This document shows positions 11,555-64,000 of a stretch of 64,000 nt of DNA, piece by piece; positions within the stretch are counted from its first letter, which is position 1; each line of letters starts with the position of its first letter. The notes beneath the pieces were generated by a model, which saw only the letters and a list, made by a program, of their open reading frames with translations, was not told the DNA's origin and did not search any database. Made by a program: the position numbers and the translations under genes. Location of the stretch: assembly GCA_043799675.1 (NCBI GenBank), contig JAZDNN010000024.1, positions 1 to 64,000 of the forward strand, written 5' to 3'. Origin of the DNA: Candidatus Aenigmatarchaeota archaeon (GTDB lineage Archaea > Aenigmatarchaeota > Aenigmatarchaeia > Aenigmatarchaeales > JACQIB01).

Positions 11555-11640
11555 GGCAGATATCCGACAGAAAAGGATTAAAAGGGCATGGTGCGCCGAC
11601 CGCGCGGACTGATGTCCGCTGAGTCGACCTCAGGAAAATT

Positions 11641-11817
11641 TGGTGCGCCGACAGGGATTCTCATAGCACTGCAACCCGAAGGCTGCCAAAACGCCTCTTG
11701 GCGCTTCGCGCTCATTTGAACCCTGGTCATCAGCTATCCTCTTTCTGGTGCAGGTCTTTGCCGTCAGGCAAAGAAGTGCCATGGAAGGCTGAGGTCCTAC
11801 CACTAGACTATCGGCGC
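11641..11817 (-). tRNA. tRNA-Gly(TCC) with two introns: 46 nt at 37/38 (11736-11781) and 57 nt at 59/60 (11658-11714)
   Basis: GCGCCGA acceptor stem, CTTCCA anticodon loop, CCA end; 74 nt after intron removal. Confidence 0.9.
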
Positions 11818-11847
11818 AGAGAAGCTTTGCGCACGACCCTCAAAAGC

Positions 11848-12540
11848 TTATTGCTTGCGGTAGAAAAGGTACGAGCGGCTCCTGGAAACGTCGGCCCTGT
11901 ATTCGAGACCTATGTCCAGTTCCTTCATCGCGGCCTCGCTGACGATGACATTCATGTTGGTCCCGTCGTTGTCGGGCGCGGTCAGGCCGGCCCACTGGCT
12001 GTTCTTTATGTTGTCTATGACCATCAGCCCGCCGCGGTTCATGTTCTTCGCCATGTTGGCCACGGCAAGCAGCCTCTGGCCGTCGATATCAGTGTCCGAC
12101 CCGTTCCCTATGTGCTCGAAAACGTTGAGGCATTCGACATAATGGAAGGGGCCCAATCCGCTCAGGTCGGCGGTGACTATGTCACCCTGCACGCAATTGG
12201 TGCGAAGGCCGCCTCTTTCCCTGGCTTCCTCAAGCGCGGCGGCATCCACGTCCAAAACGTGTACCACGAAATCCTTCTCGTATTCCGCGAACTTCCTTGC
12301 AAGCTCCACGTGGCGGATTGCGCACGTCTTGTCCTGGGCGGACTTCTTACCGACCCCAACAAGGAGGGCGTTCATCTCTCCACCGACGTTGTGAAGGAAA
12401 CCGTCCAGATAGTCGTCCACCTTCAGATGTCTGTCCGGATATGAAACGTCAGAAATCATGTCAAGCGAATGGGGCCTGTAACTTCCCCTCACTTTCTCCT
12501 GCCACTCAGGCGTCAGAAGCGCTGCCATGCTTATATTCAC
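11848..12540 (-). CDS. Class I SAM-dependent methyltransferase-like protein
   Basis: VLDVDAAALEEA, QGDI, CLNVFEHI, GGLMVI. Confidence 0.65.
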   Translation of the reverse strand: MNISMAALLTPEWQEKVRGSYRPHSLDMISDVSYPDRHLKVDDYLDGFLHNVGGEMNALLVGVGKKSAQDKTCAIRHVELARKFAEYEKDFVVHVLDVDAAALEEARERGGLRTNCVQGDIVTADLSGLGPFHYVECLNVFEHIGNGSDTDIDGQRLLAVANMAKNMNRGGLMVIDNIKNSQWAGLTAPDNDGTNMNVIVSEAAMKELDIGLEYRADVSRSRSYLFYRKQ

Positions 12541-12565
12541 TGTGTAGTAGTATATAAAGTTATCC

Positions 12566-13003
12566 TTACTCGAGCGCTTTCCGTATCATGTCGGCGGCCT
12601 TCTCCATCTGCTCCTTGGACATCTGCTTGCGGGCGGTCCAATTGATGGCCTCCCCGTGGCCGTCATCTGCAAAGCGGGGGATGAGATTTATGTGAGCGTG
12701 CTGGACCAGCTGGCCGACCGCCGCCCCGACCACCCATTCTGTGCCCAGGCCCTTCTGCATCGCCTTCGCCACCTTCCTGGCAAACTCGAAATAGGATCCG
12801 GCATCCGGGATGTCCCAGACCCAGCGGCAGTGGTCCTTCGGAATGACAAGCACGTGGCCGGGATTCAGCGGGGTTATGTCAAGGAACGCTTCGAAATCCC
12901 CGTCCTTGCAGATGCTGAAGGACGGTACCTTGCCTTCCACGATCCTGCAGAAGACGCAGTTGGGGTCCCTCTTGGCGCTCGGATGTGGCTTGTATTCGGG
13001 CAT
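12566..13003 (-). CDS. HIT family protein
   Basis: CVFCRIV, AFLDITPLNPGHVLVIPK, HAHIN. Confidence 0.9.
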   Translation of the reverse strand: MPEYKPHPSAKRDPNCVFCRIVEGKVPSFSICKDGDFEAFLDITPLNPGHVLVIPKDHCRWVWDIPDAGSYFEFARKVAKAMQKGLGTEWVVGAAVGQLVQHAHINLIPRFADDGHGEAINWTARKQMSKEQMEKAADMIRKALE

Positions 13004-13007
13004 ACGC

Positions 13008-13298
13008 TCACTTCAGCAGATAGGCATAAAAATGCGTGCTATCCGGAAAGATCGAGAGAATGAACTTTTCGGCTTCTGCAACATCCTTGGACTGAGGGGA
13101 AATCTTCCGCCAATTGTTTTGGAAGAATTCGTCGCCAAGGTCAAAGGGGACGACACTGCCTATAGACTTTCGCAGAATACGGCGACCGCACTGGAAGACC
13201 GCATTTTCACCATGAAGCAGGCGGGTGCGGACCTCGATGGTCTTGCTGCCGGCCTCCAGCGTCTCGAACACCGGCTTGTACACGCGGAACAACGGCAT
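13008..13298 (-). CDS. ASCH/PUA-like domain protein
   Basis: FETLEAGSKTIEVR motif; start placed downstream of tRNA-Trp. Confidence 0.55.
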   Translation of the reverse strand: MPLFRVYKPVFETLEAGSKTIEVRTRLLHGENAVFQCGRRILRKSIGSVVPFDLGDEFFQNNWRKISPQSKDVAEAEKFILSIFPDSTHFYAYLLK

Positions 13299-13299
13299 A

Positions 13300-13463
13300 T
13301 GGTGGGGTCGGAGAGATTTGAACTCCCGTCCGCTGGTATCACCATCGGGCAATCATCACGGTCATATTTGGCCGCTCATCGCTCCAGCAACATTCTGGAG
13401 CCAGCTATCCTGCCTGGCTTTGTCAGACGCAAGACCTAACTTGCGCCTTTAGACTACGACCCC
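13300..13463 (-). tRNA. tRNA-Trp(CCA) with two introns: 31 nt at 14/15 (13419-13449) and 57 nt at 37/38 (13338-13394, C/D-box-guide-like)
   Basis: GGGGTCG acceptor stem, CTCCAGA loop; 76 nt mature. Confidence 0.9.
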
Positions 13464-13547
13464 ATTGCTTTCAGAGGACGGGAGTATAAAAAGCGGAGTG
13501 GAGCCTTTAGTCTCCACGCCACTTGCGAAACCCAAAAAAAGGTGGAG

Positions 13548-13635
13548 TGGAGCCTCGGGAGGGAATTGCACCCTCGACCTGCTGTTTGCTTGGTTGCTTA
13601 CAAGACAGCCGCTCTTCTGCCTGAGCCACCGAGGC
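13548..13635 (-). tRNA. tRNA-Thr(TGT) with a 12-nt intron at 37/38 (13587-13598)
   Basis: Cloverleaf of 76 nt after removal; central helix CTTG/CAAG with 3-nt bulges. Confidence 0.92.
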
Positions 13636-13670
13636 AAGAGATTTAATAGGCCGAGTCTTAAAAGCTTGGC

Positions 13671-14369
13671 ATGAAAGCAAGGGTCTCGGTCGTGGTTTGC
13701 GCAAGGAACGAGGAGAAGGTCATAGGAGCCTGCCTGGAAGCGCTCAAGAAACAGACGGCCTGCCCGGAGATAATCGTCATTGACGGACACTCGACGGACA
13801 GGACCAGGGAGATAGCCAAGAAGCATGCGGACAGGGTCATCCTGGACAACGGGAAGGGAATAGGGGATGCGAGGAACATCGGCTGGAAGGCGGCAACACA
13901 CGGAATAGTGGCCTTTTGCGATGCGGATGCGAGACCGCCGCCGGACTGGGTGGAGAACATAGGAAAGCTGATTGACGACAACGCGGCCGTCAACGGGCCC
14001 CTCGTGCCTTACGATGCGCACAGATTCAGGACAAAGCTCACGATGAAGATATGGACGGACATTTTTTTGAGGGCGGGCTCGGCTGTCAGATACCCTATAG
14101 TGTGCGCGGCCAATGTGGCTTTCAGGAAAAGCATGCTGGAAAAGTATCCGTTCAGGCTCAACGCGCCCACCGAAGACTTCGATGTGGGCAGGAGGATGAG
14201 GCACGCGGGCAGGATAAGGTTCTTCAGCGAACTCCGTATGCCCATATCCGGCAGGAGATTCGAGAACAAGTTCTACAGGCGGACGGCCGTGATTTACCTA
14301 AGGAACTATTTCAGGGTCACGGTAGGGAAGGAAGCGAAGGACTTCGGATATTTCGAAAACAAGGGCTAG
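13671..14369 (+). CDS. Glycosyltransferase family 2
   Basis: VVVCARNEE, IDGHSTDRT, FCDAD, EDFD. Confidence 0.9.
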   Translation: MKARVSVVVCARNEEKVIGACLEALKKQTACPEIIVIDGHSTDRTREIAKKHADRVILDNGKGIGDARNIGWKAATHGIVAFCDADARPPPDWVENIGKLIDDNAAVNGPLVPYDAHRFRTKLTMKIWTDIFLRAGSAVRYPIVCAANVAFRKSMLEKYPFRLNAPTEDFDVGRRMRHAGRIRFFSELRMPISGRRFENKFYRRTAVIYLRNYFRVTVGKEAKDFGYFENKG

Positions 14370-14743
14370 AACAGGAGAATTATCCATATCGTAAGGGCTA
14401 TCAGGAAGCCCGAACCGAACGCTATGCCGAGCGGTATCTCGATGGGGACGCGTCCGCAGACATCATAGAGACAGGACTTCTGATACTTCCACCAGCCCTT
14501 CCCTGTCCCCCAAAGCTCCCATAAAATGTCAACGATGAAGGCGATGACACCGAATTCTACCATCAGCACAGACCTCAGTACCGCAAATGCAAAAGAGAAG
14601 AAAATCACGGCGATGATCAGTCCCTTCAACAGGAAGGTCTGCTCGCTCTTCAGGAGCAGATATTCCGGTCTTTTCAACGCAAGCCTGTACTCGTGCCTGA
14701 GGGCGTCATACTTCCGCTTCAGCAACCGGTAATCCCGCATCAT
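14366..14743 (-). CDS. Small membrane protein (paralog of the adjacent gene)
   Basis: Hydrophobic segments; ELWGTGKGWWKY...GRVPIEIP. Confidence 0.7.
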   Translation of the reverse strand: MMRDYRLLKRKYDALRHEYRLALKRPEYLLLKSEQTFLLKGLIIAVIFFSFAFAVLRSVLMVEFGVIAFIVDILWELWGTGKGWWKYQKSCLYDVCGRVPIEIPLGIAFGSGFLIALTIWIILLF

Positions 14744-14744
14744 A

Positions 14745-15134
14745 TCACAACCCGAACATCCTGACAAGCACGAATGTGGCAAGGGAGGCCCCGGAGAAGA
14801 AATAGAAGACCGGTATCCCTATCGGCACCCTTCCGGCAATCATGTGCACTGAGTTCTCGTAGTTCCAGCGGCCGTTCTTGGTCGCGTACAACTCCATCAC
14901 GAGCTCGCCGGCGGATATCAGCGCACCCATTATGAAAATCACCGGATGATGATACCAGACGATGCCGAACACCGCGATTACCAGGAACGGGATGACCAGG
15001 GACCGCTTGCTCACAAGGGCGACCCTCTTTCTGGTAGGGAGGCGCCTTTCGTACCTTGCCCTCAGGTTCTTGTAGCGGATCTTCAGCTCCGCATATTTGC
15101 GCTCGAGCTTCCGGTATGCGGCATCCATCTCCAT
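14745..15134 (-). CDS. Small membrane protein (paralog of the adjacent gene)
   Basis: ELYATKNGRWNY...GRVPIGIP. Confidence 0.7.
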   Translation of the reverse strand: MEMDAAYRKLERKYAELKIRYKNLRARYERRLPTRKRVALVSKRSLVIPFLVIAVFGIVWYHHPVIFIMGALISAGELVMELYATKNGRWNYENSVHMIAGRVPIGIPVFYFFSGASLATFVLVRMFGL

Positions 15135-15224
15135 AAGAGACCTGTTTCGGCGGCGGGCTTATAAAAATAGCTGAACGGCCGGAAGGGTTATAAGAGTTCT
15201 GGCAGCGTTATTGAAGCGAAATGT

Positions 15225-16541
15225 ATGGGGTATGACCTGGTCATAGCGGGCTGCGGAACGGCCGGAGCGGCCGCGGCCCTGACTGCGGCAAAAGCGGGGC
15301 TGAAAGTCTGCGTCGTAGAACGGAAGGACAGGGCGGACATAGGAAGGAAGACCTGCGGGGACGCAATCCACGTGGACCACCTCGAATTCGCAAAAAAGCT
15401 CGGCGTGCAGTTCGGTGAGAAGGAGCTCCTTAACAAGATAACCGGAATGTACCTGATTGCGCCGAACAAGAAGGACATGATTTACGTCGAGGACGAGGGA
15501 TACTGCGTAAACAGGCGGTTGTTCGGGCAGAAGCTCGTTTCCGAGGTGGAAAAGGAAGCCAAGCTGCTGAAGGTCAGCGCGATGGGACCCATCGTCGACG
15601 GGGAGAAGGTCACCGGAATAATCACGGACAGGGGAAGGCTTGATGCGACCGTCACCATCGATGCGACCGGAGTGACGGGCATCCTGAGAAAGCAGATACC
15701 TTTCCAGACCGATTTCCCGAAGGAGATGCAGGTCAACGATTTTGCAAAGGCCTACAGGGGCATAGTGCAGATAGAAGGCGAGTTCGATACGCCGCAGGCG
15801 ATCAAGATAGAATTCAACAACGAAGTGGCTCCCGGAGGTTACATCTGGTATTTCCCGAAGGCAAAGAACGTCCTGAACATCGGAATAGGGCTGAAAGGAA
15901 ATTCTTCCGCACAGGAGAACTACAACAAGTTCGTGGCAAGCCAGTTCGGAATAATAAAAGTGCTGGACGCGTCCGCATGGGCGCTGCCGATAAGGCGGCC
16001 GCTGGACGGGTTCGTGGCCAACGGTTTCATGATAATAGGGGATACCGCCTCACAGGTCAACCCGCTGGACGGGGCGGGAATAGGCTATTCGATGCGCGGC
16101 GGGGCGATGGCGGCCGAAGCCGCAACAGAAGCGGGAGAGCAACCGACACGGGAGAGGCTGTGGAAATACAACCACCGGTTCCAGACCGAAATAGGGATCA
16201 AGCACGTGCAATCGGCGATATTCGTGGAAGCGCTTGCTTCTTTGAGCAACGAGGACCTGAACTTCGTTTTCGGTAAGAAACTGATAAACACGGACGACAT
16301 TAAGCGGTCCTACACCGGCAGCATGAAGCTCAGCACTGCGCAAAAACTGAAGAAGGTGATGGCCGGGGCGGGAAGGCCGGAAGTGCTGTCCAAGCTCTAC
16401 AAGGTGGTGAGCCTGGCCAACGAGGCCAAAGAACACTACAAACGGTATCCTGAAACGCCTGCAGACCTGCCGATGTGGGCCGCACTCTCCAAACGAATAT
16501 TCGAAAGGTCGGCACAGGCGTTCCCGGCTTTCGGCACGTGA
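15225..16541 (+). CDS. Geranylgeranyl reductase family flavoprotein
   Basis: IAGCGTAG, KTCGDA, GYIWYFPK, IGDTASQVNPLDGAGI. Confidence 0.9.
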   Translation: MGYDLVIAGCGTAGAAAALTAAKAGLKVCVVERKDRADIGRKTCGDAIHVDHLEFAKKLGVQFGEKELLNKITGMYLIAPNKKDMIYVEDEGYCVNRRLFGQKLVSEVEKEAKLLKVSAMGPIVDGEKVTGIITDRGRLDATVTIDATGVTGILRKQIPFQTDFPKEMQVNDFAKAYRGIVQIEGEFDTPQAIKIEFNNEVAPGGYIWYFPKAKNVLNIGIGLKGNSSAQENYNKFVASQFGIIKVLDASAWALPIRRPLDGFVANGFMIIGDTASQVNPLDGAGIGYSMRGGAMAAEAATEAGEQPTRERLWKYNHRFQTEIGIKHVQSAIFVEALASLSNEDLNFVFGKKLINTDDIKRSYTGSMKLSTAQKLKKVMAGAGRPEVLSKLYKVVSLANEAKEHYKRYPETPADLPMWAALSKRIFERSAQAFPAFGT

Positions 16542-16545
16542 TGAG

Positions 16546-17610
16546 ATGGAAAACGAACGGATGTGGTCGCTGGACACCTCGACCAAGGTAAAGGGCCTGA
16601 CCTGGTGGTGGTGGTGGTGGCTTTTCTTCATCGACAACCCTTCGAACCCAGCAAGGCCGAGGCAGTTGATGATACTGTGGTCGACCAAGAACTGCAAGAA
16701 AGTAAGGATTGACGATTATGATTGGAAACGGAAGCATGATGCGCAGAAAGAAGGCAATAACCTGAAGTTCAACGGGATGGCCGCGGCCTGGTACTTCGAT
16801 GGGAAGCAGATGCACGACCCCCTGCTGCTGGACGAGCACGAGCTAAAGGCAGAATGGTCTGACAATGCCGGAAAACTACATACTGATGGGGCAACAAGGC
16901 TGTTCGAGGGCAATGACAAGGAATACAAGGTCAAGATAGAGCACAACGGACAGAACTTCGACTTCAAGCTGTTGCCGTGGACAAATTTCCAGTCGGAGCC
17001 GCATTATTCCGGGCGGAAATATGTAGGCAAGCTGGGCTACGACATCCTGAAAGTCCGCGGAGTAAAACTTGATGGAAAGATAAACGGAGAGCATGTGACA
17101 GGCACTGCATACTTCCAGAAGGTGATGGTGAACGCCCCTGCGGTGCCGTGGTACTGGGGCATGTTCCATTTCGAGGACGGCTCCTACTTCGATTATTTCA
17201 TGCCACACGTGGGACTGCAGTGCCTCAGGAGGTCTGATAAACCGAAGAGCGCGTGGGACCGCGGGCATGTGTTCATGGCACGGAATGCACAATTTTTCCA
17301 TGAGCCGACCGGGAAGCATTACACGTTCAAGAAAGCGGGAATCAAAAAACTGGTCGAGAACGGCCTGCCGATATTCCAGCTGACTGCCAAAGAGAACGGA
17401 GTCAGCATCAAGGCAAACATGGCGGCATACAGCCGCGCATGCTGGAGGTTCGAGCAGAAAGCCTTGGGGCTCAAGACGAAGCTGTTCTACAACGAATATC
17501 CCACGGAGATGCTGGAATTCGAGCTGAAGGATAAGGAAAGGACAATTACCAAGAAAGAACTTGGTCAGAGCAAAGGCAACACGGAGCATGCATGGGGGAC
17601 GCTGGCGTAA
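16546..17610 (+). CDS. Conserved hypothetical protein, tocopherol-cyclase/AttH-like lipocalin fold suspected
   Basis: Trp-rich N-terminal motif, GTAYFQKV...PWYWG. Confidence 0.6.
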   Translation: MENERMWSLDTSTKVKGLTWWWWWWLFFIDNPSNPARPRQLMILWSTKNCKKVRIDDYDWKRKHDAQKEGNNLKFNGMAAAWYFDGKQMHDPLLLDEHELKAEWSDNAGKLHTDGATRLFEGNDKEYKVKIEHNGQNFDFKLLPWTNFQSEPHYSGRKYVGKLGYDILKVRGVKLDGKINGEHVTGTAYFQKVMVNAPAVPWYWGMFHFEDGSYFDYFMPHVGLQCLRRSDKPKSAWDRGHVFMARNAQFFHEPTGKHYTFKKAGIKKLVENGLPIFQLTAKENGVSIKANMAAYSRACWRFEQKALGLKTKLFYNEYPTEMLEFELKDKERTITKKELGQSKGNTEHAWGTLA

Positions 17611-17649
17611 GTCATAGAGCATAAATACTCTTCGGCAGCTAATCTTTCC

Positions 17650-18306
17650 ATGATAAAATTCATCATCAACGGCGACGACTTCTGTGCAAGCAAGGTGTTC
17701 AACGGGAAAATACTGAATCTCCTCGAAAAGGGCTACATCAAATCGACCACCGTCATGGTCAACAGGGTCACCGAGGAACAGGAAGGGCAGATAAGGCAGC
17801 TATCCAGGCTATACAATGAAAGAATAGTAGGTGTCGGACTTCACCTTGAGTACGACGAAAAACTACCGGTCCGCAAAGCCGTCGAATCGCAATACGGGAG
17901 ATTCGTCAGAATTTTCGACTGCCCGCCTAGCCACATCGATTTTCATAAGGGAAGGGGCATGCCGGAGGCCCAATTCATTAAGATGTTCACGGCCGGCGAC
18001 AAGTTCGCAAAGGAGCACGGCCTTCCCGCAAGGAATCGCGGGACGGCAATGACGGCAAGACACACCGCCTATCCGGCATTCATGTGCAAGGACATAACCC
18101 TGGATTTCGAGGAAGTGACGGGATTTCTCCTTGGCGTGAAGGACGGCAGCAGCTGTGAGCTGATAACCCATCCGGGCGAATATGACCCCTTCAGCAAATC
18201 CAGCCGGAACAGGGAAAGGAAAGTGGACTATGACGTCATAGTCAGGCTGCAGGACTTCCTCAAGACGCACCCGAATTTCAGGAACATCAGCTATCTTGAG
18301 CTGTAG
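17650..18306 (+). CDS. ChbG/YdjC family deacetylase
   Basis: IINGDDF, GVGLHL, PSHIDFH, ELITHPG. Confidence 0.88.
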   Translation: MIKFIINGDDFCASKVFNGKILNLLEKGYIKSTTVMVNRVTEEQEGQIRQLSRLYNERIVGVGLHLEYDEKLPVRKAVESQYGRFVRIFDCPPSHIDFHKGRGMPEAQFIKMFTAGDKFAKEHGLPARNRGTAMTARHTAYPAFMCKDITLDFEEVTGFLLGVKDGSSCELITHPGEYDPFSKSSRNRERKVDYDVIVRLQDFLKTHPNFRNISYLEL

Positions 18307-18315
18307 AGAATTAGA

Positions 18316-18568
18316 TGGTGTCGGGGATGGGGTTTCCAGTGAACTTCGTTCACAGTCAAGCGAACGGAGTTCCGCTTTGAACCCACGACCTCGCGATCTC
18401 TCACAGACTCATAGCTCCGCCGCAAGCGGCAAATTGCTTTTGCCACCTTCGGTGGTTAAGCGAGTCTCAAATCTCATAATCTTGTTATGAGTCGCGCGCT
18501 TTTGGTTATCGAATCTACCAGGCTTTGCCGGCTGCATGACGCATCATGCGACCATGAGCCACCCCGAC
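18316..18568 (-). tRNA. tRNA-Met(CAT), probably elongator, with four introns: 14/15 (18524-18554, 31 nt), 22/23 (18501-18514, 14 nt), 37/38 (18398-18485, 88 nt), 59/60 (18333-18375, 43 nt)
   Basis: 253 nt minus 176 nt of introns gives a 77-nt cloverleaf with CCA; each junction has BHB/BHL geometry. Confidence 0.85.
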
Positions 18569-18599
18569 TGTTCTGATTGAATGCAAGAATTCAAATAGG

Positions 18600-19040
18600 T
18601 TAGCCAAAGCTCTCGAGGGGCGGCATTACCCGGGTGTTTCCGTCCCACAGGCCGAAATAGTTCCGGAAGAGCGGGTCATGAACCTTTGGCCTCAGTTTTC
18701 CATAATTGGTATGTCTGAATATCTTTTCGATTGCAGCAGCCTTCGCCGCCCTTTCTTTTATTTTATCCCTGCTGACGTCGAACCCGCAGACGAAGCATTT
18801 CAGGTAATAATCCGTCCCGATGGAATCCTTCCCGGTGAACACCTTCACCATGCCCAGCGGGAATTCCGACGACGGGATGCCCTCGTCCGGCCACCCGTTG
18901 GAAGGCTCCGCTTCCAGCTCGGCGGAAATCGCGTTCTTGACCATGTCGTAAACGATGCCGTTCTTTTCGTGCTTCTTGCCAACGGGCGTCAACGAGCCGC
19001 ATCTCATGCAGGGGTCCTTGGTCAGCCAGTACATCAACAT
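18600..19040 (-). CDS. Hypothetical zinc-ribbon protein
   Basis: CMRC and CFVC pairs; start moved downstream of tRNA-Lys. Confidence 0.5.
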   Translation of the reverse strand: MLMYWLTKDPCMRCGSLTPVGKKHEKNGIVYDMVKNAISAELEAEPSNGWPDEGIPSSEFPLGMVKVFTGKDSIGTDYYLKCFVCGFDVSRDKIKERAAKAAAIEKIFRHTNYGKLRPKVHDPLFRNYFGLWDGNTRVMPPLESFG

Positions 19041-19070
19041 CGTTGTGTGAGAAAGGGATAAATCGACGAG

Positions 19071-19267
19071 TGGTGGGCCCAACGGGACTCTCGTAGCACT
19101 GCCGCGCTGGCGGCAAAAGCGCTTTTGGCGCTTCGCGCTCATTCGAACCCGCGACCTACCGGTTTCTCCAGTCACCGAACCAAAATGATGGTTCTCTTTT
19201 GGCTCCATTAAGAGCCGGTCGCTGATGGCTTGGTTTTAACCAATCTACCAGACTGAGCTATGAGCCC
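19071..19267 (-). tRNA. tRNA-Lys(CTT) with three introns: 22/23 (19224-19244, 21 nt), 37/38 (19164-19208, 45 nt), 59/60 (19088-19141, 54 nt)
   Basis: 197 nt minus 120 nt gives a 77-nt cloverleaf with CCA. Confidence 0.88.
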
Positions 19268-19301
19268 GAACTATTCAGAAGTCGCGGAGTATTAAAAGCC
19301 T

Positions 19302-32259: not shown

Positions 32260-32366
32260 CTGAAAACAATTGCCTTTTGGCGGGAAAGCATAAGCTTAAA
32301 AGGGTTAACGGAGGATAGCGTTTTATAAGTTTGTATTTTCGCTTCACTACATTAGGGTAGCTAACT

Positions 32367-55218: not shown

Positions 55219-55338
55219 TAACCCACCATCAGTTTAATTCGCTGCGGCGTAATAGCTCCATAAAAGGTTATAAAGCTATTGGACTGGCGCAAGGCATTTC
55301 ACGACCGGTCATTTAAGAGCCGGAAAACAAAGCTGCTC

Positions 55339-55770
55339 ATGCCGAAGTTCAGGTTCATTCCCGAGATAGCGATAGCTGATGTAGCCTTCGAAGCGGAAGG
55401 TAAGGACATCAATGAGCTGTTTGTGAACTGCGCCCTTGCAACCGAGGAATCCATGGTCAACACAAAGAAGGTGAAGCCGAAGGTCAGCAAGACCATAAAG
55501 CTGGAAGCGGATGCGCTGGACAGACTGATGATTGACTGGCTGAACGAGGTGATTTACTACAAGGACGCGGAGGGGCTGCTGTTTTGTGAATTCATCGTCA
55601 AGGTATTGCAAAAGGGAAAGAACTGGACGCTTGAAGCCACGGCAAAGGGCGAAAAGAGGGACCCGAAGAAGCACGAGCTCAGGGCGGATGTGAAGGCGGC
55701 GACTTGGCACCTTTTTGAACTGAAGCAGGAAAAGGGCAAGTGGAAAGCGAGGATTGTAGAGGATATCTGA
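55339..55770 (+). CDS. Archease (RtcB activator)
   Basis: ADVAFEAEG, DWLNE, DVKAATWH, C-terminal DI. Confidence 0.92.
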   Translation: MPKFRFIPEIAIADVAFEAEGKDINELFVNCALATEESMVNTKKVKPKVSKTIKLEADALDRLMIDWLNEVIYYKDAEGLLFCEFIVKVLQKGKNWTLEATAKGEKRDPKKHELRADVKAATWHLFELKQEKGKWKARIVEDI

Positions 55771-57627: not shown

Positions 57628-59212
57628 ATGGAGCAGGAACCTGAAAAGCAGACAGGCAGTCTGCCGAAGGAAATCAAGAAAATCAGCGAGGTCGTCTGGG
57701 AACTGCCCACCAGCTACAAGAAAGGCATGCGCGTGCCGGCAAGAATATATGCGACCAAGAAGCTGCTCGATGCGATGGACGCGGGAGTGTTCGAGCAGGT
57801 CACCAACGTCGCGACCCTGCCGGGAATCGTCAAGCATGCGTTCTGTATGCCGGATGGGCACTGGGGTATGGGTCAAGTCGCGGCTTGATTCACTCAAATA
57901 TGGGTTCCCAATCGGCGGCGTGGCTGCATTCGACCCGAAGGTCGGCGTGATCAGCCCGGGCGGCATCGGGTTCGACATCAACTGCGGCATGAGGTTCGTC
58001 ACTACCAACCTTACTGTCAAGGACGTCAAACCCAAGCTGAAAGAACTGGTGGATATCCTGTTCAGGACGGTTCCCGCGGGCGTGGGCGGGGAAGGGTTTG
58101 TAAAATTAAGCCGCAGCCAATTCGACGAAATAATGGTCCAAGGGGCCAATTGGGTCATCGAGCACGGCTACGGTTGGAAAGAGGACACGGAAAGAATAGA
58201 GGAGTACGGCTGCATCAAAGGTGCTGATCCGTCAAAGGTCAGCGACAAGGCAAGGACCAGAGGCATCACGCAGATGGGGACGCTCGGCTCAGGGAACCAT
58301 TACCTGGAAATCCAGACTGCCGAGAAAATTTTCCTTCCCGAAGTCGCAGAGGCATTCGGCGTGAACGAACAGGGGCAGATAGGGGTGATGGTGCACTGCG
58401 GCTCGAGGGGGTTCGGCCACCAAATCGGAACGGATTATCTCAGGATATTCGACATGGCAATGAAGAAGTACAACATCACGGTGCCTGACAGGGAGCTTGC
58501 CTGTGCGCCTTTTGCGAGCCAGGAAGGACAGGATTATTATCACGCGATGGCCTGCGCGGCAAACATGGCTTTTGCCAACAGGCAGGTGATTTTGCACAGG
58601 ATACGCGAGGCTTTTGCAAAGGTGTTCAGGAAATCCCCCGAAGACATGGAAATGCACCTGGTGTACGATGTCGCGCACAACGTGGCCAAGGTGGAGAAAC
58701 ACCTGGTCGACGGTCATGAAAAGGAACTGGTGATGCACCGGAAGGGGAGCACGCGCTGCTTCGGTCCGGGTAGGCCGGAGATTCCTGAAGCTTACCGCAA
58801 GGTCGGCCAGCCGGTGATTGTGGGCGGCAGCATGGAAACGGGCAGCTTTTTGTGCGTGGGCACGGACAAGGCTCTGACAGAAACATGGGGAAGCACCATG
58901 CACGGCGCGGGCAGAACCATGAGCAGGACTTCAGCGAGGAACCAGGGCTCGGGCTTGGCGTTGCAGAAGAAGATGGCCAAGGAAGGGATACTGGTGGAAG
59001 CCACGAGCATGAGCGGGCTTGCAGAGGAAGCGGGCTTTGCCTACAAGGACCTGAACGAAGTGGTCGAGACCATGGAAATCGCGGGCGTGAGCAGGAAGGT
59101 CGTTCTGCTGAGGCCTTTGGGTAATATTAAAGGCACCGCCCGGGCCTCATACAGCCTTTTAGCTTTCCCCATACTTGTCATGGTCTTGGCCTTGATTTCG
59201 TCCCTTATCTGA
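57628..59212 (+). CDS. rtcB: RtcB tRNA-splicing ligase, join(57628..57867,57899..59212), interrupted by a putative 31-nt BHB intron
   Basis: MPDGHWG|YGFPIGG after joining; GFDINCG, GTLGSGNHYLE, HCGSRG, HRKG, HGAGR. Confidence 0.9.
57868..57898 (+). other. Putative BHB mRNA intron in rtcB
   Basis: Central helix TGGG/CTCA, bulges GT^A and AA^T, 10-bp intron hairpin; removal restores the frame. Confidence 0.8.
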
Positions 59213-60276
59213 ACGATAAGCGGTTCGACCTGTTTCCACCTCGTGATGTTCTTGCCGATTATTTCGAGAATCAATTCCTTTTTGGCCGTTTTCTCGGGAT
59301 GCCTCAACGGCAGCAATTCGAGCATCCGACGGACATCGGCCTTCCTGAAGATTTCTAAGGCGAAATAATCCTTGCTGTATCTTATACTGACCCCATGAGT
59401 GTCTCTGCCGTCCCCGCGCCTGAAAATCCTGTATAGAATTGGATTAAAGCCCTGTTCCCTTAGTTGCCGTTTTATCCTACCAAGCAAGGTTTTATTTTCG
59501 GTGCCTATCCGCATACAACACTGCAAATTTTCCCTGATTTTCTTGACCAGAAGCGACCCTTCCGCATCGAAGTAGCCGGCCAGGAACGACAGGAAAACAT
59601 TCCGTTCGGATTCGACCAACTCTGAAATCAATCGTTTCCTGTTTTCCAGCAAGAGGAAGTCGAAGCTGTTGTCGAGGTCTGCGGATGTCGTCCACATGTA
59701 ATTTCCAAAAGTTCTGTTCTTCGCAGGATATGTCCTTACCTTCGCATATCCTTTGAACAGGCTCTCGAAGACATCCAGGAATCCTTCATGAGTCGTGTTG
59801 GTTATGGCCCGAATGGTATGCTTCGATCTTCTGAAGGCTGTCACATCACCCTCCACGAAACCAACCATGTAAGCCTTTTCTTCATCCTTTCCATCAAAAC
59901 TTTGCCGTTCATGTTTCCTGTTTGTCAGCAGGATAGCCTCATCGTTTCCACGCACCCGAAAGCCGTTTTCTTCCAGCACCTTATGCAACGTGCCTTTGGA
60001 AGAACCAAATTTCTTGGCCAGCTTTTTCAACGATATTTTCTCCGTGTCATAAAGTCTCAGAATTTCCGTCACAGGCAGGTGTTTCCTGTGAGACAACGAA
60101 TGTGCCTGACTGAGATTCCTTATCGGTATGTCAAGTTTGATGAACCGTTTTCTTACGGCCGACCACGATATATCGTCTCCGAGCTTAACACTCAATATCG
60201 CCGCCACTTCTTTGAACGTCTTACCGGACGAATAGAGACTCTCGGCTTCCTTCAGGAGTTCGCTGTTCAGCTTCAT
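59041..60276 (-). CDS. LAGLIDADG endonuclease-like protein with N-terminal HTHs
   Basis: AYMVGFVEGD and SFLAGYFDAEGS; ISLKKLAKKFGSSKGTL; its 3' end overlaps rtcB. Confidence 0.85.
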   Translation of the reverse strand: MKLNSELLKEAESLYSSGKTFKEVAAILSVKLGDDISWSAVRKRFIKLDIPIRNLSQAHSLSHRKHLPVTEILRLYDTEKISLKKLAKKFGSSKGTLHKVLEENGFRVRGNDEAILLTNRKHERQSFDGKDEEKAYMVGFVEGDVTAFRRSKHTIRAITNTTHEGFLDVFESLFKGYAKVRTYPAKNRTFGNYMWTTSADLDNSFDFLLLENRKRLISELVESERNVFLSFLAGYFDAEGSLLVKKIRENLQCCMRIGTENKTLLGRIKRQLREQGFNPILYRIFRRGDGRDTHGVSIRYSKDYFALEIFRKADVRRMLELLPLRHPEKTAKKELILEIIGKNITRWKQVEPLIVQIRDEIKAKTMTSMGKAKRLYEARAVPLILPKGLSRTTFLLTPAISMVSTTSFRSL

Positions 60277-60331: not shown

Positions 60332-61408
60332 CTAATCATGCAGAATACATCCAAAAATATTATTATACCTTCCAGCGAGCGCATTTCTCAACCTGAACGT
60401 GTCGCCCTGCGCCGCATAGGCCATCCAGCCCTCAAGGCTTTTCGCAGCCTGTTCTGCCGAAATCTCACCGGATTCGTACTGCAGTCTGAGTGCCGTCATC
60501 CTTTTTTCGAGCTTCAGCAGGTTCCTCCTTTTTGGAATCCTGTAGTGGTAGAACACCCTGAAGCCGAGCAACGATATCCCCTTATGCAAAGGGTAGACCT
60601 GCGATTTTTCCTCATGCAACTCTAGCTTTAACCGTTGTTTGAGGAACCCGTTTATCCCGCTCCTGAACTGCATCAGCGCGGCCTCAGACCTGTCCAGAAT
60701 CACGAAGTCATCTACATACCGGAGATAGAACCTTGCCTTAAGCACGTGCTTCACGAAATGGTCCAGCTCATTCAGGTAGACGTTCGCGAAGAACTGGCTC
60801 GTCTGATTGCCTATCGGCATCCCCTTCGGCAGGGCAGGGTCGTTGTTCGACAGGATTTTCCGTACCAGCCAGAGCACGCTTTCGTCCCTTATTTTTCTCC
60901 GTATGATGCCAATCAGGACATCGTGGTCGACGCTCGGGAAATAGTGCCTTATGTCGGCCTTCAGTGCATAGCCGACCACCATGTTGTTGTCCTTCGCGCC
61001 GTGCACCAAACGGCCGTTCCCGGAAACCTTTCGCTTGAAGCAATCAAACCTGTCCAATGCTGCCAGGCCGCCCTTTCCCTTCCTGTTGGCGTAGCTGTCG
61101 TGGATGAACGTTTTGTCGAAAATCGGTTCGAGCACGTTGCATAACGCATGATGGACAACACGGTCCCTGAAATGCGAGGCATGAATTACCCGTGTCTTGG
61201 GGTCGCGGATGATGAACCGTTTCAACGGGCGCGGCGAATACGTACGATTTTCAAGCTCAGTTTTCAAATCTGCCAATTCGCCATCAAGATTAGCTTCGAA
61301 TCTTTTGACATACCATTTCTTCGACTTGCCCTTCCTCGCCTTTCTGAATGCCAGCAAAAGGTTCTCTGGCGAGCAGACCTTTCCGTAAAGGTTGTCAAAT
61401 GTTTTCAA
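60332..61408 (-). CDS. DGR reverse transcriptase
   Basis: RDRVVHHAL, KADIRHYFPS, GMPIGNQTSQFFAN, RYVDDF, LLGFR; 358 aa with no maturase extension. Confidence 0.95.
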   Translation of the reverse strand: MKTFDNLYGKVCSPENLLLAFRKARKGKSKKWYVKRFEANLDGELADLKTELENRTYSPRPLKRFIIRDPKTRVIHASHFRDRVVHHALCNVLEPIFDKTFIHDSYANRKGKGGLAALDRFDCFKRKVSGNGRLVHGAKDNNMVVGYALKADIRHYFPSVDHDVLIGIIRRKIRDESVLWLVRKILSNNDPALPKGMPIGNQTSQFFANVYLNELDHFVKHVLKARFYLRYVDDFVILDRSEAALMQFRSGINGFLKQRLKLELHEEKSQVYPLHKGISLLGFRVFYHYRIPKRRNLLKLEKRMTALRLQYESGEISAEQAAKSLEGWMAYAAQGDTFRLRNALAGRYNNIFGCILHD

Positions 61409-61457
61409 AAATATCCCCTATCGGCGGCCCGTGCTATTGGCGCAGACCCCGTTGTCA

Positions 61458-61490
61458 TTCAGGCTTCCCGCCAAAAGGCAATGAGGAAGT
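61458..61490 (-). other. Putative TR intron 3 (33 nt)
   Basis: Central helix CAGG/CCTG, bulges AA^A and AA^T, intron stem CTTCC/GGAAG; absent from the VRs. Confidence 0.8.
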
Positions 61491-61515
61491 TTCCTGTTCG
61501 AGGGCCTGTTCGCAT

Positions 61516-61546
61516 TTATGCCGGCGGAACGTTTCCTTCCAACCGT
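61516..61546 (-). other. Putative TR intron 2 (31 nt)
   Basis: Central helix ATGC/GCAT, bulges GA^A and AA^A, intron stem CGG..GGAA/TTCC..CCG; absent from the VRs. Confidence 0.8.
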
Positions 61547-61562
61547 TCGCATTGAAGCACCC

Positions 61563-61579
61563 TTGACGGCCCGAAGGCT
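61563..61579 (-). other. Putative TR intron 1 (17 nt)
   Basis: Central helix GACG/CGTC, bulges AG^A and AA^G, GCC-TTCG-GGC hairpin; absent from the VRs. Confidence 0.8.
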
Positions 61580-61853
61580 CTCGTCCGTGTTCCAATCCGA
61601 CCTGACGGAAGGGTTTCGGTAGCCTCTCCACCGACATGACACCGCGGCTTCAATCTTCGGGAACCTACCAACTGAAACCGCTGAATTTAATGGCACAAGC
61701 ATTCGGACGGCATGAAATGCCATCGCACCATCTTGCGCTCTATGGAAAGGCGTATAGCGCGGGCCTTTGCCGGGAGAATGAAATACCCGCCCCCCGATTG
61801 GGAAGGAAAGAACTCTGTCATGCAAAAATTGAGGGACGAAACGATTTATGCGC

Positions 61854-62600
61854 CTATTTTGAGGTCTTAACCGCTTTTTTTGCGGCGCAGACCCCGAGGT
61901 CATGCCTGAGCGAGGGCCCGCCCGCATCCGCATCGAAGCACCCCCCGTCGGAGTGCCAAGTCGACCTGACGGAAGCCACTTCAACCGGGATTAAGGCTTC
62001 TGTTTCGATTTCTACTATATCCAGTTTGTTGTCTTTCATCCTGTAAGAAGCCGCTTTCTGTTTGGCCAGCTTTTGGATGACCTCAAGATTATGATTCCAG
62101 TAATCGTCCATCGTTGCCTTGTATTCCTTGTCGGAATTCATCAGTTCAGCCGACTCCTGTGCCTTGAAGTGTCTTACTCCAAAGTCCAGCTTGAACTCCT
62201 CGGGTATTCTCTGATAGACCAGTTCCTGGATTATCCTGTCCGCATTGGCGATGAACCCTTTGCGTTTATAGTCCCTGAACTTTCCTGCGTCCCCTTTGGC
62301 CATCAGGAGCGCATAGCCTTTCTTTTCAAGGTCCTTTTCCAGCCTCTTTCCGTCAATTATGGCCAATATTTCATCGACCTCTCCCAACCTTTCTTTTACA
62401 GAAAAATCATCATCAAATATTACAGAGCCATTGTAAGCGGCCAGCTTCGAATCATACGCGCCTGCTGCACGCAGATAATCGAGAACACAGCCTTCAACAG
62501 TTACAGGCACGGCTTTTCCCGTGAACCTGAATTCCCCGTCGATAATCCTCACTTCAGGCTCGGGCATCACGACCGTTGTTATTTTGCTCATGATAATCAT
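61854..62600 (-). CDS. DGR target protein 1 (C-terminal VR, CLec-like fold inferred)
   Basis: Contains VR1 encoding SVRSTWHSDGGCFDADAGGPSLRHDLGVCA. Confidence 0.88.
   Translation of the reverse strand: MIIMSKITTVVMPEPEVRIIDGEFRFTGKAVPVTVEGCVLDYLRAAGAYDSKLAAYNGSVIFDDDFSVKERLGEVDEILAIIDGKRLEKDLEKKGYALLMAKGDAGKFRDYKRKGFIANADRIIQELVYQRIPEEFKLDFGVRHFKAQESAELMNSDKEYKATMDDYWNHNLEVIQKLAKQKAASYRMKDNKLDIVEIETEALIPVEVASVRSTWHSDGGCFDADAGGPSLRHDLGVCAAKKAVKTSK
61884..61975 (-). repeat. Variable repeat VR1 (92 nt)
   Basis: 16 mismatches to the joined TR, 14 of them at TR adenines. Confidence 0.9.
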
Positions 62601-62603
62601 TCT

Positions 62604-63329
62604 TCAGAAGTGCTTCTTCACGACTTCGAGGTCTTTCATCAAAGCGTCATATTTCTTTGACTTTTCCAGAAGCTCCCGGTATTCGCTCTCCGCGACCTCG
62701 CACATCTTCGGAAGCTCGGCCTTCTCGTCCGTTTTAAGGAGGGCGCAGACCCCGTCGTCAGCCCAGTGCGAGGGCCTGCCCGCAGTCGCATTGAAGCACC
62801 CCTCGCCCGTGGTCCAAGCCGACCTGACGGAAGCTTCACCGTTTTCAAACGAGATGCTTCCCCTCCAGACCTTCTTTTTCGGTTTCTTGAACAGCCCGGC
62901 ATTCACGAGTGTATCAAAGACGTCCGATTTGCTTATCCCGGCCCTTGTTCTTTTGCCGTCATATTTGAGTTCACCGTTCACTTCCTTCACGACGGGGTCG
63001 GCTATTATCTCGCCCTTCTCAAGGGCGACTTCCCTGTTGTGCAACCAATAATCAATATTCATTTTCTTGAACGACTTGTCCTCGTGCACCAAATCGTAAG
63101 AAACCTGCAACGGCAGGAGCGTGTAGCGCTCGCCGACCTTCTTTGATACTTCCTGACCGAGAAGCGTCATCTGCCTGTGGTCGAGGTTCGCCACGAGGCC
63201 ATTGCCTTTGTAGTCGTTGTGCCCTTCGGCAGGACTTCCCTTCCATTTCGGGAAATACACCGTTTCCTTGCCCGTGGGCGGCACTATCTTTCCCGCTATC
63301 TCATGGACGATTTCGGCCTGTGTTACCAT
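62604..63329 (-). CDS. DGR target protein 2 (VR followed by a helical tail)
   Basis: Contains VR2 encoding SVRSAWTTGEGCFNATAGRPSHWADDGVCA. Confidence 0.9.
   Translation of the reverse strand: MVTQAEIVHEIAGKIVPPTGKETVYFPKWKGSPAEGHNDYKGNGLVANLDHRQMTLLGQEVSKKVGERYTLLPLQVSYDLVHEDKSFKKMNIDYWLHNREVALEKGEIIADPVVKEVNGELKYDGKRTRAGISKSDVFDTLVNAGLFKKPKKKVWRGSISFENGEASVRSAWTTGEGCFNATAGRPSHWADDGVCALLKTDEKAELPKMCEVAESEYRELLEKSKKYDALMKDLEVVKKHF
62742..62833 (-). repeat. Variable repeat VR2 (92 nt)
   Basis: 11 mismatches to the joined TR, all at TR adenines. Confidence 0.92.
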
Positions 63330-63389: not shown

Positions 63390-64000
63390 TCAATCGCCGC
63401 ATTCGTCCAAAGCCGCTTTCCTAAAATCCAACGATTTAGGAGGGTCCTTCAGAAACTGTTGATATTCGCTCTCCGCAATCTTGCGCACCTTCGGCTTCTC
63501 AACGGCCTTGCCCGTTTTCACGAAGGCGACAACCCCGCGGTCAGGCCCGGAGGAGGGCCAAGACGCACCCACAGCGAAGCACCCAAAACGGTTTCCCGAC
63601 TTGACGGAAGAAATGCCGTCATTCTCGTAAATGATGCCCCAATCACAGACGTTGTGATTGAGCTGCTTGAACAGTTTTGCGCTGGCAAGCGTCTTTATCA
63701 CGGACTCTGCGTCAATGTTCGCCTTTACGCTCCTGCAACCATCATTGAGCCTGAGCTCGCCGTCGACTTCGCTGACAATCGGGACGGAAATAACATCCCC
63801 GTTTCTCCGTATGACTTCCCTGTTGATTATCTTATAATCGGCCATCATTTTCTTGAAACTTCTGTCATTATGCACCAAATCATAACTCGTCTGAAACGGA
63901 AGTTCGGCATAACGCTCGCCCACTTTCTCGGATATCATCTGACCCAAGAACACGGACTGCCACTTATCGAGAGTCGCAACAAAACCCTTACCGTAACGAT
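63390..64000 (-). CDS. Paralog of target 2 with a degenerate VR (63525-63610); N-terminus lies beyond the window
   Basis: Frame stays open to the window edge (...RYGKGFVATLDKWQSVFLGQ...); KVGERY.ELPFQTSYDLVH matches target 2. Confidence 0.8.
   Translation of the reverse strand, partial: RYGKGFVATLDKWQSVFLGQMISEKVGERYAELPFQTSYDLVHNDRSFKKMMADYKIINREVIRRNGDVISVPIVSEVDGELRLNDGCRSVKANIDAESVIKTLASAKLFKQLNHNVCDWGIIYENDGISSVKSGNRFGCFAVGASWPSSGPDRGVVAFVKTGKAVEKPKVRKIAESEYQQFLKDPPKSLDFRKAALDECGD

Follow-up and report, generated by a model that had tools for sequence, protein, structure and literature searches.

In a stretch of 64,000 nt from Candidatus Aenigmatarchaeota archaeon (assembly GCA_043799675.1, contig JAZDNN010000024.1, positions 1 to 64,000; referred to as the window) we analysed a diversity-generating retroelement (DGR) whose template repeat (TR) is interrupted by three short inserts. 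The inserts have the bulge-helix-bulge (BHB) layout of archaeal introns and are absent from the variable repeats (VRs) of the target genes. Judged from the sequence, it is very probable that EndA cleaves the TR RNA within the bulges, that RtcB and archease ligate the exons, and that the 92 nt product is reverse-transcribed with errors at A and homed into the VRs. An earlier note on this DNA had proposed such processing of the DGR RNA by EndA and RtcB ahead of reverse transcription. The proposal is supported here by the geometry of the inserts, by covariation, by calibration of the splicing register on other introns, by VRs that follow their own TR and by the presence of genes for the enzymes.

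The TR lies on the minus strand at 61439-61611 and covers 173 nt as DNA and 92 nt once three inserts (17, 31 and 33 nt) are taken out, all of them with a single occurrence. Exon 1 (61580-61611, positions 1-32 of the spliced TR) is followed by intron 1 (61563-61579), exon 2 (61547-61562, positions 33-48), intron 2 (61516-61546), exon 3 (61491-61515, positions 49-73), intron 3 (61458-61490) and exon 4 (61439-61457, positions 74-92), the 3′ end of which is the G+C-rich sequence GGGGTCTGCGCC common to both VRs. This is the interrupted repeat quoted in the earlier note, and the sequence matches the quotation. Without its inserts the TR aligns ungapped to 62742-62833 (minus strand) with 81 of 92 nucleotides identical and to 61884-61975 (minus strand) with 76 of 92 identical. 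All 11 mismatches to the first VR and 14 of the 16 mismatches to the second VR are located at an A of the TR, and the counts given in the earlier note for a gap-free TR of 92 nt were thereby reproduced. The next-best ungapped 92 nt matches reached 48/92 in the window and 47-48/92 across the assembly of 748,753 bases, which corresponds to the chance level. The earlier note had also suggested a check for an uninterrupted TR that matches the VRs better, and none was found elsewhere in the assembly, which is estimated to be 83% complete. Mutations of A are present in all four exons and directly abut junctions 2 and 3 (spliced positions 48, 49, 72 and 73). The 173 nt of TR DNA are not collinear with the 92 nt of a VR, the longest unbroken block shared by the two being 32 nt, and we infer that collinearity is regained at the RNA level.

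The archaeal splicing endonuclease cuts after the second nucleotide of each bulge. For the register test we therefore required that the 5′ exon ends with the four helix nucleotides and two bulge nucleotides, that the intron opens with the third bulge nucleotide followed by helix B, and that it ends with the four complementary helix nucleotides and two bulge nucleotides. All three inserts show four of four central pairs and 3 nt bulges in a register that is permitted by the VRs, with one, three and four equivalent permitted registers for inserts 1, 2 and 3, respectively. Intron 1 (17 nt) has the central helix GACG/CGTC, the bulges AG|A and AA|G and a helix B of 3 bp closed by a UUCG loop; on its outer side there are three pairs beyond a G.G mismatch. 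Intron 2 (31 nt) has the central helix ATGC/GCAT, the bulges GA|A and AA|A, a helix B and an outer helix of 2 bp. In intron 3 (33 nt) we observed the central helix CAGG/CCTG, the bulges AA|A and AA|T and a helix B of 5-6 bp with an inner hairpin; there is no outer helix, which is a relaxed form. Given their weak outer helices all three introns are classed as relaxed BHB forms. The local minimum free energy (MFE) fold of intron 2 yields the central helix, a 3 nt bulge and helix B, and the BHB of intron 3 is recovered by the MFE fold as well as by the centroid fold. The central helices, bulges, inner hairpins and imperfect outer helices are all as described in the earlier note, and its application of the cut rule held for each insert, the BHB register being among the permitted ones in 3/3. 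The introns have no second copy in the assembly and hence do not form a repeated family. The sole notable recurrence of intron sequence in the assembly is an exact match of 18 nt to the inner hairpin region of intron 3 at 32269-32286 on the plus strand (E value of 2e-4 against the assembly).

The cut rule fits two further introns of the window that can be delimited without reference to the DGR. The first interrupts the gene for the RNA-splicing ligase, rtcB (57628-59212, plus strand), with 31 nt at 57868-57898 in the same register. The match to the Pfam RtcB model runs up to 57867 with positions 1-24 and resumes at 57899 with positions 25-426, and the joined exons give a stop-free frame of 518 aa. 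There is one copy of rtcB in the assembly, and the ligase that seals BHB exons would itself need mRNA splicing. The second is a BHB mini-intron of 12 nt (13587-13598) at the canonical 37/38 site of tRNA-Thr(UGU) (13548-13635, minus strand). ARAGORN calls this gene as an intronless tRNA of 88 nt; after removal of 12 nt according to the rule, the program calls a tRNA of 76 nt. The BHB register used for the TR thus holds for a tRNA intron and an mRNA intron of the same window.

We then compared the TR with those of related DGRs. A protein search with the reverse transcriptase (RT) was positive in 54 of 371 genomes of the same phylum. Loci were gathered from the phylum genomes (20 loci with 8 kb flanks), from genome contigs (59) and from metagenome contigs (80). 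For each locus the RT was placed with tblastn, a repeat seed was obtained with blastn-short and the repeats were aligned with a local aligner that allowed long gaps on one side only and penalised mismatches at A mildly. Of the 153 loci that entered, 42 were lost before a repeat pair was obtained, 20 for want of a seed and 22 because the sequence upstream was too short. The other 111 gave a pair, from which we removed 26 that were not clean and A-biased as well as 10 duplicates, leaving 75 clean unique loci. An insert was counted as a perfect BHB if it had 4/4 central pairs and at least 2 helix B pairs in a register permitted by the VR. Among the loci with an RT identity of at least 55%, 29 of 37 clean loci carry inserts, and of the 61 unique inserts 46 are perfect BHBs, nine have three of four central pairs and six fail. 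At RT identities of 46-55% we found an insert in three of 17 clean loci (one BHB, two not), and below 46%, a group of bacteria that are mostly from the candidate phyla radiation (CPR), in one of 21 clean loci, where it is not a BHB. Loci with a Woese-, Pace- or Nanoarchaeota label have a TR that forms one block. In the group with at least 55% identity 58 of the 61 inserts start with A, and the gap on the VR side is zero at all 65 inserts, as every VR lacks them. The intron length across the relatives ranges from 15 to 58 nt. One record labelled SCGC AAA011-D5 showed a 44 nt 'insert' with no BHB and a flank of 24 nt, which we treated as an alignment artefact. In several relatives the RT match comes in two adjacent overlapping pieces (G242:C68:5379-6462, G286:C25:678-1723 and G212:C103:12631-13637), and in G099 it carries a TGA in frame. 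Frameshifts or decay may be the cause, or possibly BHB inserts in the RT mRNA.

For the statistical controls we used a first set of 42 inserts from 19 loci, all of which open with A. Of these, 33 form a perfect BHB in a permitted register, compared to only 1 of 168 when the register was displaced and 24 of 8400 (0.29%) when the inserts were shuffled. The earlier note had pointed to gapped TR/VR searches next to related RTs as a means to look for covarying BHB helices, and besides the inserts in 29 of 37 loci such covariation was indeed detected. We anchored eight pairs, four of the central helix and four of helix B, and found each of them paired in 82-98% of 50-61 inserts with four to six standard pair types in use, while shuffled partners pair in 40-52%. 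Across the five closest relatives (RT 82-85% identical) 95.5% of the cells pair, compared to 22-47% if the partners are slid. In these relatives the TR exons are nearly invariant and the changes fall in the loops and stems of the introns. For example, the UUCG loop of intron 1 is replaced by GCAA or GUAA, with the stem being kept.

These regularities bear on the possibility that the RT itself skips the inserts by template jumping at the bases of their stems, in which case unspliced RNA would be the template and no host splicing would be involved. In favour of this, each insert hairpin does draw the flanking exon nucleotides together. However, skipping has no need for a 4 bp helix and two 3 nt bulges in a fixed register, nor for A as the first nucleotide (58/61), and for many inserts only one register is permitted; as no nucleotide is then repeated at the two boundaries, there is no microhomology for the jump. 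Furthermore the same geometry and register are found on the tRNA intron and the mRNA intron of the window, and related RTs in bacteria and in genomes labelled Woese- or Nanoarchaeota use uninterrupted TRs. We consider skipping by the RT very improbable.

When the spliced TRs were aligned, the inserts clustered at three homologous sites, at positions ∼27-35, 47-48 and 70-76 of the spliced TR of the window. The breadth of these ranges is partly due to the ambiguity of the boundaries. Where a TR is missing one of the introns, it is collinear with the spliced TRs at that site, and the site of intron 3 is the most widely conserved among the relatives. An RT tree was computed from 60 of the 75 clean loci; the other 15 were left out as their RT match was shorter than 250 aa. 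On this tree the intron-bearing DGRs cluster: their label needs three changes, compared to 18.8 in label shuffles. A group of 14 rows with Woese- and Nanoarchaeota labels is intron-free, as are all 20 bacterial rows. The tree is midpoint-rooted only and we therefore do not claim a direction of intron gain or loss. If lineages with introns at all three sites are compared, their TR exons show 15-34 differences at non-A positions, and at 100% of these the VR follows its own TR. Homing hence went on after the lineages had diverged, with intron-bearing TRs as the source. The alternative to continued homing would be repeated independent invasion of the same sites, many times over. As the three sites are conserved across the clade while the length and sequence of the introns vary, the introns look old. 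The simplest explanation is that they are BHB introns of a selfish or neutral kind, for which an imprecise loss is not possible. The cDNA of the retroelement is itself unable to erase them, since the transfer of information is one-way, from TR to VR.

The same comparison makes it hardly credible that the DGR is dead, with inserts that entered the TR after inactivation and a TR/VR similarity that is a relic. Under that explanation the three sites would not be expected to be occupied across a clade with RTs that are 57-83% identical and with VRs that match their own TR at every non-A difference. The decayed VR of the third target paralog (described below) and the two non-A mismatches of the VR at 61884-61975 are in its favour; opposed to these are the other VR with 11/11 mismatches at A, the intact frame of the RT and the near invariance of the TR exons in close relatives while the introns vary.

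Several observations weigh against the interpretation of the inserts as spliced BHB introns. Introns 1 and 3 have no contiguous outer pair and intron 2 has two, so the strict hBHBh' form is lacking. The local MFE fold of intron 1 differs from the BHB, and the folding energy of the whole TR is ordinary (z-score of −0.74). Six of the 61 inserts in the group with an RT identity of at least 55% fail the BHB test. Three of these, two of L037 and one of L137, become BHBs by inspection if the boundary is shifted by 1 nt over a mutable A; the remaining ones are insert 1 of L070 and the inserts of L074 and L187. The scored register is the best among one to five permitted ones, and the loci are kin, which is why binomial P values (∼1e-46 and below) overstate their independence. 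A scan for BHBs by structure only hit control DNA ∼14 times per kb, and it recovered 42 of the 65 inserts. The loose BHB definition is thus unspecific when taken alone, and the statistical force lies in the coincidence with boundaries that are defined by the VRs. For the five closest relatives the shuffle control of pairing was not significant (318/500), because there are too few changes. Finally, as the assembly is 83% complete, a second TR may exist outside it.

The proposed course of events is as follows. A transcript of the RT-16 RNA (described below) and the TR, with or without the RT, would be made. The host EndA would cut the 3 nt bulges that flank each 4 bp helix, as the conserved geometry suggests, and RtcB together with archease would presumably ligate the exons. 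The resulting template of 92 nt would be reverse-transcribed with adenine-specific errors and the cDNA would replace the VRs of target genes 1 and 2. The A-specific copying of a spliced template is demonstrated indirectly, as the VRs equal the exact intron-less TR and differ from it almost only at A, on both sides of each junction. The order of cleavage and ligation relative to reverse transcription is inferred.

The genes for the predicted enzymes are present. Archease, the RtcB cofactor family, is encoded at 55279-55770 on the plus strand (Pfam PF01951, 133.7 bits), with rtcB at a distance of ∼2 kb and the RT at 4.6 kb. Two adjacent, slightly overlapping EndA paralogs of 209 and 170 aa are located in the assembly at G000 contig C10:51469-52295 (minus strand). 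Both are full-length with N- and C-terminal domains, which suggests a two-subunit splicing endonuclease in this lineage. We also considered that EndA cuts the TR RNA without subsequent ligation, so that the RT copies the pieces discontinuously or the cleavage makes a primer or a defined 3′ end. RNA ends do matter in DGRs, as the cDNA of the Bordetella DGR is primed from nicked template RNA (PMC5703328). However, the exon pieces are just 16-32 nt long and would be held by 0-2 outer pairs, the VRs are seamless copies of the four exons in order, and RtcB and archease are encoded 2-6 kb away from the RT. Cleavage alone therefore appears highly unlikely to us, and the preferred course remains cleavage followed by ligation. 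The proximity as such is a curiosity and suggestive at most: RtcB is found within 8 kb of the DGR RT in only two of 20 relatives (L035 and L038), all of them kin, and is absent there in the other 18.

The introns could also be functional. cDNA made from spliced RNA is collinear with the VRs and not with the TR gene; accordingly, a spliced template might shield the master TR from being overwritten by, or recombining with, mutagenised copies, and splicing might gate hypermutation on the RNA-splicing state of the cell. We regard this double role as rather unlikely. The ligase gene that such gating would involve needs splicing itself and lies 2 kb away.

The tRNA genes of the host appear to be rich in introns. 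Of the 16 Infernal tRNA matches in the assembly, 15 span 85-161 nt (model length: 71 positions). The earlier note had reported a tRNA-Leu with a 17 nt intron at site 29/30 in the window, which we did not recover: ARAGORN and Infernal call only tRNA-Thr and an unassigned tRNA-like gene there, and a scan of 11600-19300 for a 17 nt BHB intron of tRNA-Leu returned nothing convincing. The tRNA-like gene (13300-13463, minus strand, 161-164 nt) has an Infernal tRNA score of 37 bits and a weak match to the tmRNA clan. Its acceptor and T-arm are recognisable and it contains several internal hairpins. Multiple introns are probable in this gene, and it may be the tRNA-Leu of the earlier note. Brute-force BHB splicing combined with ARAGORN on the 16 Infernal matches produced unreliable calls, which were not used.

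The DGR occupies the minus strand in the order of three tandem paralogous target genes, RT-16 RNA, TR, a spacer of 30 nt and the RT. The RT (60332-61408) has 358 aa, a TTG start and a Pfam RVT_1 match of 60.1 bits; no other RT match was obtained in the assembly. Its intact frame contains IGNQTSQ, which is of the IGxxxSQ type, and YVDD, which together we take to be a DGR signature. Its closest grouping is with DGR RTs from DPANN archaea and from CPR bacteria, where the TR/VR pairs are A-biased. The RT-16 RNA (Rfam RF03019) at 61614-61790 scores 57.2 bits, compared to a gathering score of 50, and covers the whole model (positions 1-158). Its 3′ end is 2 nt from the TR and the introns are outside the motif. 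A full-model match directly upstream of the TR is present here and in 19 of the 20 related loci searched, including intron-free ones. The RT-16 RNA thus belongs to the archaeal DGR RNA, of which it is the conserved 5′ part, and not to the intron phenomenon. The TR and VR share an identical G+C-rich 3′ end, and no partial homology of the IMH* type (initiation of mutagenic homing) is seen beyond the TR. A conserved AATA(G)-like motif is located at or just past the 3′ end of the TR in almost every archaeal locus (for example 61434-61438 in the window, L059, L065 and L145), where the VRs read GGTA or GGGTA. A G+C-rich hairpin is often found 3′ of the VR.

Target gene 1 (61854-62600, 248 aa) contains the VR at 61884-61975 as amino acids 209-239, and target gene 2 (62604-63329, 241 aa) the VR at 62742-62833 as amino acids 166-196. 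Both VRs are therefore placed near the 3′ ends of protein-coding genes. Target paralog 3 (63390-64112, 240 aa; the window stops at 64000) has a decayed, insert-free VR at 63532-63584, which aligns to TR positions 33-85 with 17 mismatches, 14 of them at A; there is a 6 nt deletion upstream and its 3′ end is altered. It looks like a former DGR target at which rewriting has ceased. A Pfam scan assigned the three target proteins to no family, and no Avd was detected among the neighbouring open reading frames (ORFs) of at least 60 aa that were scanned with Pfam. Between the RT and rtcB there is an ORF of 411 aa with HTH and LAGLIDADG_3 domains (59041-60276, minus strand). A homolog with 39% identity adjoins rtcB and the DGR in L035 in a different arrangement.

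If the template is spliced as proposed, several consequences follow. A natural retroelement template that depends on host protein enzymes for its splicing would be known for the first time, as would a BHB substrate whose sequence, once spliced, passes back into DNA. The substrate range of the archaeal splicing endonuclease would also be widened. Finders that rely on contiguous repeats would see just fragments of 15-47 nt in this lineage. It is plausible that DGRs with interrupted TRs escape such programs, given a longest unbroken block of 32 nt here, and DGRs of the Aenigmatarchaeota type may be under-counted or their TRs mis-delimited. Conserved sites combined with free intron sequence also make a clean system for the study of how BHB introns are gained and retained.

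DGRs of DPANN archaea and CPR bacteria are reportedly also treated in Paul et al. 2017 Nat Microbiol. The element in the window resembles them in its DGR-type RT, its non-coding TR just upstream of the RT, the VRs near the 3′ ends of the targets, the A-specific differences between TR and VR and the several target paralogs, and its RT is 48-60% identical to RTs of loci labelled Woese- or Nanoarchaeota, including the SCGC AAA011-D5 record. In contrast to the DGRs labelled Woese-, Pace- or Nanoarchaeota and to those of bacteria, which have a one-block TR in the same pipeline, the TR here is broken up, and in the clade it can hold as many as three inserts, 15-58 nt in length. DGRs of these groups were described by Paul et al. 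2015 (PMC4372165) and surveyed by Wu et al. 2018 (PMC5758913). In the latter, length differences between TR and VR are given for 25 of 372 DGRs and ascribed to slippage at AAC repeats, and its supplement has no 'Aenigm' entry. The author of the earlier note knew of no account of an intron-containing TR; likewise, in the literature searched (full text, with subscription journals largely outside) we found no description of BHB introns in DGR templates.

A BHB consists of two 3 nt bulges separated by a 4 bp helix and is found in pre-tRNA, pre-rRNA and a few pre-mRNAs (cbf5); such introns are cut by EndA and joined by RtcB, and relaxed forms with enzymes that accept them have been described (PMC5829648). 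The TR introns share with these the layout of bulges and helix, relaxed forms that lack one outer helix and a short length. Two EndA paralogs are encoded by the host, whose tRNA genes are rich in introns, and the TR register is identical to the canonical tRNA register at 37/38 in the window. Unlike the known substrates, the TR RNA is a retroelement template and neither translated nor a stable structural RNA. A further difference from known BHB products is that the spliced TR would be read by an RT and its sequence would end up in DNA. DGRs and BHB introns are each known; what appears to be new is a DGR with a template that would be processed by the tRNA-splicing pathway of archaea.

The closest precedent is an engineered one. 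A td group I intron inserted into the TR of the Bordetella phage BPP-1 was spliced, and only the ligated exons served as template, with mutagenesis of A (PMC5703328). The DGR mechanism hence tolerates a spliced template. The td intron is an artificial tag that splices itself and was employed in bacteria, whereas the introns of the TR in the window are natural, multiple, conserved in position, predicted to be spliced by proteins and dependent on host enzymes. In bacteria the RNA intermediate had to be demonstrated with an engineered intron; if the splicing proposed here is true, the introns would be a natural proof that archaeal DGRs, too, pass through RNA.

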